Source: a virus
Lineage: Duplodnaviria > Heunggongvirae > Uroviricota > Caudoviricetes
Direction: 5' to 3' (one strand)
DNA: 7,580 nt
IMG/VR virus record: IMGVR_UViG_2740892210_000005
The notes beneath the pieces are model-generated. The model did no database searches, was not told where the DNA came from, and saw only the letters and a program-made list of their open reading frames with translations. Positions 3,620 through 7,006 of the stretch are shown one piece after another. The position numbers were made by a program, and so were the translations under genes. Position 1 is the stretch's first letter; the number at the start of each line of letters is the position of its first letter.

Positions 3620-6600
3620 ATGGGTAAAGGCAGCAGTAAGGGGCATACCCCGCGCGAAGCGAAGGACAACCTGAAGTCCACGCAGCTGCTGAGTGTGATC
3701 GATGCCATCAGCGAAGGGCCGGTTGAAGGTCCGGTGGATGGATTAAAAAGCGTGCTGCTGAACAGTACGCCGGTGCTGGACAGTGAGGGGAATACCAATA
3801 TATCCGGCGTCACGGTGGTGTTCCGGGCCGGTGAGCAGGAGCAGACACCGCCGGAGGGATTTGAATCCTCCGGATCCGAGACGGTGCTCGGTACAGAAGT
3901 GAAATATGACACGCCGATCACCCGGACCATCACGTCGGCAAACATCGACCGTCTGCGCTTTACCTTCGGTGTGCAGGCACTGGTGGAAACCACCTCAAAG
4001 GGTGACCGGAATCCGTCGGAAGTCCGCCTGCTGGTTCAGATACAGCGTAACGGTGGCTGGGTGACGGAAAAAGACATCACCATTAAGGGCAAAACCACCT
4101 CGCAGTACCTGGCCTCGGTGGTGGTGGATAACCTGCCGCCGCGCCCGTTTAATATCCGGATGCGCAGGATGACGCCGGACAGCACCACAGACCAGCTGCA
4201 GAACAAAACGCTCTGGTCGTCATACACCGAAATTATCGATGTGAAACAGTGCTACCCGAACACGGCACTGGTCGGCGTGCAGGTGGACTCGGAGCAGTTC
4301 GGCAGCCAGCAGGTGAGCCGTAATTATCATCTGCGCGGGCGCATTCTGCAGGTGCCGTCGAACTATAACCCGCAGACGCGGCAATACAGCGGTATCTGGG
4401 ACGGAACGTTAAAACCGGCATACAGCAACAACATGGCCTGGTGTCTGTGGGATATGCTGACCCACCCGCGCTACGGCATGGGGAAACGTCTTGGTGCGGC
4501 AGATGTGGATAAATGGGCGCTGTATGTCATCGGCCAGAATTGCGACCAGTCAGTGCCGGACGGCTTTGGCGGCACGGAGCCGCGCATCACCTGTAATGCC
4601 TACCTGACCACACAGCGCAAGGCGTGGGATGTGCTCAGCGATTTCTGCTCGGCGATGCGCTGTATGCCGGTATGGAACGGGCAGACGCTGACGTTCGTGC
4701 AGGACCGACCGTCGGATAAGGTGTGGACCTATAACCGCAGTAATGTGGTGATGCCGGATGATGGCGCGCCGTTCCGCTACAGCTTCAGCGCCCTCAAGGA
4801 CCGCCATAATGCCGTTGAGGTGAACTGGATTGACCCGGATAACGGCTGGGAGACGGCGACAGAGCTTGTGGAGGACACGCAGGCCATTCTCCGTTACGGT
4901 CGTAACGTCACGAAGATGGATGCCTTTGGCTGTACCAGCCGGGGGCAGGCACACCGCGCCGGGCTGTGGCTGATTAAAACGGAGCTGCTGGAGACGCAGA
5001 CCGTGGATTTCAGCGTGGGTGCCGAAGGGCTTCGCCATGTGCCGGGTGATGTTATTGAAATCTGCGATGATGACTATGCGGGGATCAGCATCGGCGGGCG
5101 CGTGCTGGCGGTGAACAGCCAGACCCGGACGCTGACGCTCGACCGTGAAATCACGCTGCCATCCTCCGGTACCACGCTGATAAGCCTGGTTGACGGAAGT
5201 GGCAATCCGGTCAGCGTGGAGGTCCAGTCCGTCACCGACGGCGTGAAGGTAAAAGTGAGCCGTGTTCCTGACGGCGTTGCCGGATACAGCGTATGGGGGC
5301 TGAAGTTGCCGACGTTGCGCCAGCGCCTGTTCCGCTGCGTGAGTATCCGTGAGAACGACGACGGCACGTATGCCATCACCGCCGTGCAGCATGTACCCGA
5401 AAAAGAAGCCATCGTGGATAACGGGGCGCACTTTGACGGCGACCTGAGCGGCACGGTGAATGGCGTCACGCCGCCCGCGGTGCAGCACCTGACTGCCGAA
5501 GTCACCGCAGACAGCGGGGAATATCAGGTGCTGGCGCGCTGGGACACGCCGAAGGTGGTGAAGGGGGTGAGCTTCCTGCTTCGCCTGACCGTGGCAGCGG
5601 ACGATGGCAGTGAGCGGCTGGTCAGTACGGCCAGGACGACGGAAACCACATACCGCTTCACGCAACTGGCGCTGGGGAACTACAGGCTGACTGTCCGGGC
5701 GGTAAATGCGTGGGGACAGCAGGGCGATCCGGCATCGGTATCGTTCCGGATTGCCGCACCGGCAGCGCCGTCTCGGATTGAGCTGACACCGGGCTATTTT
5801 CAGATAACGGCGGTCCCGAAACTGGCTGTATATGACCCGACGGTGCAGTTTGAGTTCTGGTTCTCGGAAAAGCAGATTATTGATATCAGGCAGGTTGAAA
5901 CCACAGCCCGCTATCTTGGCACGGCGCTGTACTGGATAGCCGCCAGTATCAATATCAGGCCGGGCTATGATTATTATTTTTACGTTCGCAGTGTGAACAC
6001 CGTTGGCAAATCGGCATTCGTGGAGGCTGTCGGTCGGGCGAGCGATGATGCGGAAGGTTATCTGAATTTTTATAAAGGGTTGATCAATAAAACGCATCTC
6101 GGTAAGGAGCTACTGGAAAACTTTGAGCTGACGGAAGATAACGCCAGCAAACTGGAGGAGTTTTCGAAAGAGTGGAAGGACGCCAGTGATAAGTGGAATG
6201 CCATGTGGGGCGTCAAAATTGAGCAGACCAAAGACGGCAAACATTATATCACGGGTATTGGCCTCAGCATGGAGGACACGGTGAGCCAGTTTCTGGTTGC
6301 CGCTAACCGTATCGCGTTTATTGACCCGGCAAACGGGAATGAAACGCCGATGTTTGTGGCGCAGGGCAACCAGATATTCATGAACGACGTGTTCCTGAAA
6401 CGCCTGACGGCTCCCACCATTACCAGTGGCGGCAATCCTCCGGTATTTTCCCTGACATCAGACGGAAAGCTGACCGCTAAAAATGCGGATATCAGTGGCA
6501 GTGTGAATGCGAACTCAGGGACGCTCAACAACGTCACGATTAATGAGAACTGTCGGGTTCTGGGAAAACTGTCCGCGAACCAGATTGAAGGCGATCTCGT

Positions 6601-7006
6601 TAAAACAGTGGGCAAAGCTTTCCCCCGCACGAACAGTTATGCCAGTGGCACCATCACGGTAAGAATCAGTGATGATCAGAAATTTGACCGGCAGGTCATG
6701 ATACCGCCAGTGTTATTCCGCGGTGGTAAGCATGAAAATTTCAACAGTAATAACCAACAGTCATACTGGTATTCAACCTGCCGGTTAAGAGTGACCCGCA
6801 ATGGTCAGGAGATTTTTAATCAGTCCACGACGGATGCTCAGGGCGTATTTTCCTCAGTTATAGATATGCCTGCCGGACAGGGGACGCTGACACTGACATT
6901 CACCGTATCTTCATCAGGAGCGAATAACTGGACACCAACAACCAGTATCAGCGATCTGCTGGTTGTGGTGATGAAAAAATCCACAGCAGGTATCAGTATC
7001 AGCTGA
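3620..7006 (+). CDS. J: Tail tip / host specificity protein J (central tail fibre, 1128 aa)
   Basis: A 3387-nt ORF starting [34 protein letters not shown]..., which matches the lambda gpJ N-terminus as I recall it. Its size is close to lambda J (about 1130 aa) and it sits immediately after I. The middle region has FN3-like repeats; the C-terminal ~150 aa appear divergent from lambda. Confidence 0.95.

Follow-up and report, generated by a model that had tools for sequence, protein, structure and literature searches.

An A8-type receptor-binding domain at the tip of a lambda-like J protein, with OmpC as the probable receptor

Lambda gpJ binds the porin LamB. The J protein encoded in the window, a 7,580-nt stretch of Caudoviricetes DNA that is the whole of contig BBUS01000059.1 (assembly GCA_001592505.1; IMG/VR record IMGVR_UViG_2740892210_000005), resembles gpJ along its stem and departs from it at its tip, which raises the question of the outer-membrane receptor that such a J would recognize. 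The tip carries a receptor-binding domain (RBD) identical to that of A8 gpJ, a protein with OmpC as its receptor, and a receptor switch away from LamB to OmpC is very probable for this J (about 0.9). The tip is a common allele that is already known, with its receptor and structure published or deposited. The parts of J that bear on the question are listed below, with domain names after Ge et al. 2024 (PMC11101478).

3620..7006, plus strand: J, complete, 1128 amino acids, stop codon at 7004–7006 (open reading frame list)
3620..6535, plus strand: lambda-like part of J, residues 1–972, 95.5% amino acid identity to lambda; hub domains, two FNIII/Ig domains, alpha-helical shaft, and most of the beta-prism fibre
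5801..6300, plus strand: milder mosaic patch within the lambda-like part, approximately residues 728–894
6536..6619, plus strand: linker, residues 973–1000, the last fibre-prism layers and the entry to the RBD; 1A2-type allele
6620..7003, plus strand: Ig-like RBD, A8-type, residues 1001–1128; 128/128 to A8 gpJ

Divergence of the J tip from lambda gpJ

J contains six Pfam families in the lambda order, namely FNIII-A_GpJ, Phage-tail_3, Ig_J, Ig_J_second, Phage_Tail_Tip, and Ig_GpJ_C, all with matches above the curated cut-offs. Both the full gpJ domain set and the position of the gene in an H-M-L-K-I-J-lom cluster mark the product as a lambda-type tip attachment protein. In global alignment, the whole J is 87.9% identical to lambda gpJ (NC_001416), and phmmer matches it to lambda J in PDB 8iyk_J with 2268 bits over residues 1–1127. 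This identity is unevenly distributed along the chain: residues 1–972 are identical at 932/976 aligned positions, and residues 973–1128 at only 41.6%. Over the last 150 residues, 62/155 positions (40.0%) are identical, with three or four small indels. The peptide quoted in the initial annotation is exactly what the frame at 3620–7006 encodes, and its view of a C-terminus substantially unlike that of lambda is borne out by this figure, which lies far below the approximately 90% identity named there as the sign of an unchanged lambda tip.

The near-identity to lambda noted for the N-terminal and central parts of J holds for residues 1–972 taken together, but not for residues 751–900, in which the blocks of the global alignment reach only 82–88%. 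The same mosaic patch is visible in the DNA, where 5801–6300 is 85–92% identical to lambda versus 95–99% in most other bins. A four-residue deletion relative to lambda (EEGK) lies within the patch, near the shaft/fibre junction; in lambda, the region of this junction refolds on receptor binding.

At the DNA level, positions 1–6553 of the window are colinear with lambda at 94.7% identity. The blastn match stops at 6553, and the identity in 100-nt bins falls from 94–96% (6301–6500) to 67% (6501–6600) and then to 46–58%; hence, the start of the divergent region, which had been placed at 6540, is accurate to within a few bases, and its end at 7006 is the final base of the stop codon. The divergence from lambda runs past the stop codon, through the intergenic region and into the lom-like gene.

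The A8-type receptor-binding domain and its receptor

Judged by its sequence, the divergent end of J is still a lambda-type receptor-binding domain. Ig_GpJ_C (PF12421) matches residues 1005–1128 with 124.5 bits on the full-length J and with 129.7 bits on the C-terminal fragment (E = 1e-37, cut-off 26.2), covering profile positions 15–135 of 135. Residues 1001–1128 are identical at 128/128 positions to the "A8 gpJ 713" chains of PDB 9wca and 9wcb, and J of phage Turner and of Stx1_131719 shows the same full identity. When the comparison is extended to the last 181 residues, the identity to A8 gpJ is 175/181, with all six differences located between residues 979 and 1000; a PDB sequence search with this fragment gives 376.9 bits for the A8 gpJ 713 chains versus 160.7 bits for lambda. 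Both A8 entries, solved by cryo-EM, were released on 2026-01-28. According to the entry titles, 9wca is the "Closed state of A8 gpJ 713 central tail fiber", and 9wcb holds the open form of the same central tail fiber together with OmpC G17 (E. coli EDL933). Three chains named "Outer membrane porin C" are present in 9wcb, as found by querying the PDB with an E. coli OmpC sequence.

Because of the 128/128 identity to a solved A8 chain, the Ig-like fold of the RBD is in effect established. A single-sequence AlphaFold2 model of residues 985–1128 is all-beta and of low confidence (pLDDT 61.3), and its top Foldseek matches are 9wcb, 9wca, 8xck, and 8xcj, with TM values of approximately 0.6; this model adds nothing beyond the 100% identity to the solved chain.

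A8 is lambda gpJ fused at residue 964 to the C-terminus of a natural E. coli gpJ, designed to give lambda particles OmpC in place of LamB as their receptor (Brodel et al. 2024, Nature, PMC11338833). A8 particles require a suitable OmpC allele for DNA delivery into a delta-lamB delta-ompC host: with plasmid-borne OmpC in MG1655 delta-lamB delta-ompC, 95% of the cells became GFP-positive at a multiplicity of infection (MOI) of 84, compared with 1.9% for wild-type lambda particles, and the delivery exceeded 90% for most of the 23 OmpC alleles (PMC11338833). The A8 DNA in the supplement of that paper aligns to window positions 6434–7006 at 93% identity, a value that includes the reading errors of a machine-read copy. 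Meanwhile, vB_EcoS_phi330 (PV189401.1) is a natural Stx2a-converting siphophage (PMC12502783) whose J end is identical to that of the window at 172/181 of the last 181 residues. When phi330 was spotted on 54 Keio mutants of outer-membrane proteins, all except delta-ompC were lysed, and returning ompC to this mutant restored plaques (PMC12502783).

The 9wcb complex, the A8 delivery data, and the ompC dependence of phi330 allow OmpC to be named as the receptor, and the suggestion of the initial annotation, that C-terminal mosaicism had given this J a receptor other than LamB, is thus supported by a domain matching OmpC-binding A8 gpJ at every position. A reading in which the divergent C-terminus has kept LamB, or recognizes a third receptor (such as OmpF, FhuA, or BamA), and in which the divergence reflects neutral drift or immune-type variation, is extremely unlikely. 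Such a reading could draw on the Pfam family that the RBD shares with the LamB-binding RBD of lambda, on the OmpF use that lambda J gains through point mutations, as cited in a passage of PMC11101478, and on Gifsy-1 J, which binds several outer-membrane proteins (PMC12312913). However, the identical domain functions in a delta-lamB background in dependence on the OmpC allele supplied (PMC11338833), the identical domain has been solved bound to OmpC in 9wcb, and the only mutant that phi330 failed to lyse was delta-ompC. In addition, the RBD is only 40% identical to that of lambda, with indels in the alignment.

Several points weigh against the assignment of OmpC to this J. The experiments were performed on A8 and phi330. 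Relative to A8, this J has six changed linker positions (979–1000) and further differences along the lambda-like stem; relative to phi330, nine of the last 181 residues are changed. No paper describing 9wca and 9wcb was found in the literature search. A8 uses OmpC alleles unequally, with 7% delivery for G40 at an MOI of 226 and lowered delivery for G55, G56, and G67 (PMC11338833), so the usable host range would be narrower than "any OmpC". Furthermore, in hosts with O-antigen or capsule, the access of J to OmpC may be blocked and adsorption may depend mainly on side tail fibres, for which Gifsy-1 provides a reported case (PMC12312913). Finally, the contig spans 7.6 kb, and nothing in the window indicates an inducible or particle-forming prophage. 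OmpC binding and dependence have been demonstrated by others on an identical or near-identical domain, and by extension particles of this prophage, if made, would probably use OmpC.

Mosaic structure of J, related alleles, and relay of the binding signal

The window was compared with representative phage J genes at the protein and DNA levels, and three segments with different nearest relatives were mapped.

Up to approximately 6540: residues 1–972; nearest to the stems of lambda, Turner, and h434
6540–6629: residues 973–1000 (linker); nearest to 1A2-type J genes
6630–7075: residues 1001–1128 (RBD) and the intergenic region; essentially identical to A8-type phages Turner, Stx1_131719, and phi330

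J thus reads as a three-part mosaic of a lambda-like stem, a 1A2-type linker, and an A8-type RBD, and this combination is its sole local peculiarity. The linker is identical at 28/28 residues to the J of 2G7b, PPompW_132418, and Stx2a_JNE122137, at 22/28 to A8, Turner, and Stx1_131719, and at 14/28 to lambda. Over DNA 6540–6629, 0–2 mismatches per 30 nt separate the window from 1A2-type phages, versus 4–6 from A8-type phages. The clean breakpoints at approximately 6540 and 6630 illustrate the swapping of linker and RBD as separate recombination units. The published 1A2 chimera carries the same linker peptide, but its DNA is only 74% identical over window positions 6430–6628 (PMC11338833 supplement); hence, its C-terminal part was apparently recoded or taken from a more distant allele.

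Among lambdoid J proteins, the relatives of the window RBD fall into at least five allele classes by sequence, given here with their identity to it.

Lambda class, LamB-binding: approximately 40%
434/Perceval class, OmpC-binding: 41%
1A2-type class, OmpC-binding: 55–58%
2E9 and 1717 subtypes: 77–81%
A8-type class: 100%

Other candidates for the origin of the domain were discarded. The RBD core is 39.8% identical to that of lambda, which sets it apart from the LamB-binding allele, as does the value over the last 150 residues. The 434-type OmpC-binding allele (lambda h434) was rejected as the source, with 41.2% identity in the RBD core and 57% in the linker; the 1A2 type shares only the 28-residue linker in full. 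Gifsy-1 J, itself an OmpC binder with a C-terminus reported to be 18% identical to that of lambda (PMC12312913), was rejected as a close relative, being absent among the tblastn matches. A 2026 receptor-prediction preprint is not applicable to this J, as it covers GpJ only in Drexlerviridae and explicitly excludes the lambda C-terminal domain.

The known systems resemble the window J in different respects. A8 gpJ shares the RBD, the domain family, and presumably the OmpC receptor; it is, however, an engineered chimera on a 100% lambda stem, whereas the window J is natural, with a 1A2-type linker and the stem described above. Phages phi330, Turner, and 2H10 and many Stx1a/Stx2a long-tailed phages carry the A8-type RBD in J, and a lom gene lies downstream of J in Turner and phi330, but all of these phages have the A8-type linker; in the Stx phages, the J stem is also far less lambda-like, with 77% identity over residues 899–972. 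In the case of 1A2 gpJ and the 1A2-type J proteins (2G7b, PPompW_132418, and Stx2a_JNE122137), the linker, its essentially identical DNA at 6540–6629, and OmpC binding (PMC11338833) are shared, but the RBD belongs to a different class. The two types also differ in receptor alleles: 1A2 accepts EDL933 OmpC but not MG1655 OmpC, and A8 accepts both (PMC11338833). Phage 434 J (lambda h434) offers a parallel, being a lambda-like J in which a swapped C-terminus leads to OmpC, according to a passage of PMC11101478; because its RBD is only 41% identical to that of the window, it represents a separate allele class, although in the h434/Perceval type the downstream lom is approximately 90% identical to the window lom. 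Lambda gpJ (PDB 8iyk, 8xck, and 8xcj) has the same architecture, gene order, RBD Pfam family, and all-beta fold, and probably the same triggering mechanism, but differs in the receptor, LamB versus OmpC, and in an RBD only approximately 40% identical, with indels known from the alignment only.

No paper was found in a literature search by the names of the nearest phages, Chlobot, IdasGreatGrand, HannyBb, PhiR29_2, and PhiR70_1, a search that did not include Turner. A 3.8-kb contig labelled "MAG: Clostridiales bacterium" (SFGJ01000067.1) carries a J RBD 77% identical to that of the window; misbinning of a fragment of an enterobacterial prophage is the most likely explanation.

In lambda, the trimeric central fibre ends distally in three Ig-like RBDs that close it (Ge et al. 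2024, PMC11101478), and four bottom loops of each RBD enter the extracellular side of the porin trimer. On receptor binding, the bases of the RBDs move apart and their tops are pinched. The lowest beta-prism layers next gain new hydrogen bonds, and the twist travels to the helical shaft and the FNIII domains, and the hub opens (PMC11101478). The closed (9wca) and OmpC-bound open (9wcb) states of A8 indicate that the same scheme operates with OmpC as the trigger. In the window J, the C-terminal allele would have been acquired by recombination, and three Ig-like A8-type RBDs would form the far tip of the central tail fibre, itself a trimer, with their bottom loops docking on the extracellular face of the OmpC trimer in place of LamB. 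OmpC binding would spread the three RBDs apart, by analogy with lambda and LamB and consistent with the closed and open A8 structures. This change may then pass up through the beta-prism fibre and the helical shaft until it reaches the FNIII domains and the hub, whereby the tail tip would open and the DNA would be ejected. On this analogy, the signal relay in this J would work as in lambda.

The linker is the place at which the behaviour of this J could depart from that of A8. It is quite unlikely that OmpC is bound but that the combination of a 1A2 linker, an A8 RBD, and a partly non-lambda shaft alters the OmpC allele range or the triggering of ejection relative to A8. The six substitutions in residues 979–1000 do fall just above the RBD, and in lambda the relay begins in the bottom prism layers directly above the RBD, which gain hydrogen bonds once the receptor is bound (PMC11101478); A8 and 1A2 are also unlike in OmpC allele range (PMC11338833). 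The substitutions themselves (R979Q, V980I, L981K, L993I, G998S, and A1000S) are nevertheless conservative, a linker of the window type works in functional 1A2 particles, and an A8-type linker works with the same RBD. The allele range, moreover, is expected from the bottom loops, which are identical to those of A8, and both linker variants are widespread in natural prophages. A wider version, with only a slight chance of being right, holds that the linker, RBD, and shaft together tune the trigger threshold or the OmpC allele range relative to A8, or that the RBD has extra low-affinity receptors such as those of Gifsy-1 J.

Gene neighbourhood, prevalence, and significance of the allele

With OmpC as the preferred receptor, it has to be asked whether the J gene belongs to a functional tail. 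The order of the tail genes in the window, from open reading frames and from the called genes and Pfam families of this contig and its sister contigs, is H-M-L-K-I-J-lom, the same as in lambda.

To 1185, plus strand: H, C-terminal part (open reading frame list, Pfam families)
1182–1511, plus strand: M (open reading frame list, Pfam families)
1511–2209, plus strand: L (open reading frame list, Pfam families)
From 2215, plus strand: K (open reading frame list, Pfam families)
To 3559, plus strand: I (open reading frame list, Pfam families)
7024..7053, plus strand: terminator-like hairpin GGGCGTCA-GAAA-TGACGCCT followed by a T-run, between J and lom (consensus scan)
7073..7580, plus strand: lom-like outer-membrane protein gene, first 169 of approximately 199 amino acids, cut by the contig end

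The K/I junction is interrupted by a run of 32 N at 2926–2957. The bases flanking this run are directly adjacent in two other assemblies (L005, which is 100% identical elsewhere, and L003); the run is a zero-length scaffold gap, and masked sequence was rejected as its explanation on the same grounds. Because the gap shifts the frame, the X-containing open reading frame of 262 amino acids at 2215–3003 is an artefact; the true K has 247 amino acids, and I starts at or near the gap.

The possibility that J is a relic in a defective prophage, with no present function in adsorption, has to be weighed here. Many lambdoid prophages in multi-copy E. coli genomes are defective. As many as 10 copies of the A8-type RBD are present in a single E. 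coli genome, and the 7.6-kb contig ends within H and lom. Short contigs are, however, expected where similar prophages collapse in draft assembly, and the 1128-codon J frame is intact with all six Pfam domains. The frames of M, L, K, and I are likewise intact if the artificial run of N is taken out. Furthermore, an identical J protein is encoded in three further assemblies, for a total of four contigs; on one of these, which is 26 kb long, a full complement of head and tail genes lies upstream of J. A relic is therefore unlikely, and a J with an OmpC-directed tip is still preferred.

The hairpin at 7024–7053 has an 8-bp stem with five G-C pairs and a T-run, and it is the single site of the consensus scan, against 0.2 expected; this predicted terminator suggests that lom may be transcribed apart from the late tail operon. 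The lom-like gene matches the Pfam family Ail_Lom (E = 6e-104), and its DNA is 100% identical to the sister contigs and approximately 90% identical to lom in lambda h434 and in Perceval, but only approximately 50% identical to lambda lom. The lambda lom is the unusual allele, as is the lambda RBD. At the other end of the window, the C-terminal part of H shows lower identity to lambda at 701–800 (86.6%, with a 12-nt indel) and at 1101–1200 (77%), and the remainder of this tape-measure gene is 94–100% identical.

The frequency of the allele was surveyed in 5,426 complete E. coli genomes, with window positions 6620–7006 as the A8-type query and the lambda RBD as the lambda-type query. The A8-type RBD core has matches in 2,511 of these genomes, including 863 records at ≥99% identity and 630 at 95–99%, and an RBD at least 95% identical occurs in about a quarter of the genomes. 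The lambda-type RBD was found in 98/5,426 genomes, and the five matches listed are K-12, B, and DE3 laboratory strains. On these frequencies, the A8 type is the ordinary allele and lambda the outlier. Among the phages of a collection, carriers of the A8-type 3' end include many long-tailed phages of the Stx1a- and Stx2a-converting kinds, as well as temperate coliphages such as Turner and 2H10. A scan of species-representative genomes with the RBD gave four loci at 56–77% identity, none of the A8 type, a result uninformative on the species range.

For annotation, this J can be labelled as an "OmpC-specific (A8-type) tip attachment protein", instead of a generic "host specificity protein J". The separate exchange of linker and RBD is relevant for the engineering of gpJ chimeras, and, if the linker does tune triggering or allele range or the RBD has extra receptors, the shuffling of linker and RBD would constitute a second layer of host-range control. 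The locus is also a reminder that, among natural E. coli prophages, the LamB-binding tip of lambda is rare and the OmpC-binding A8-type tip is common.

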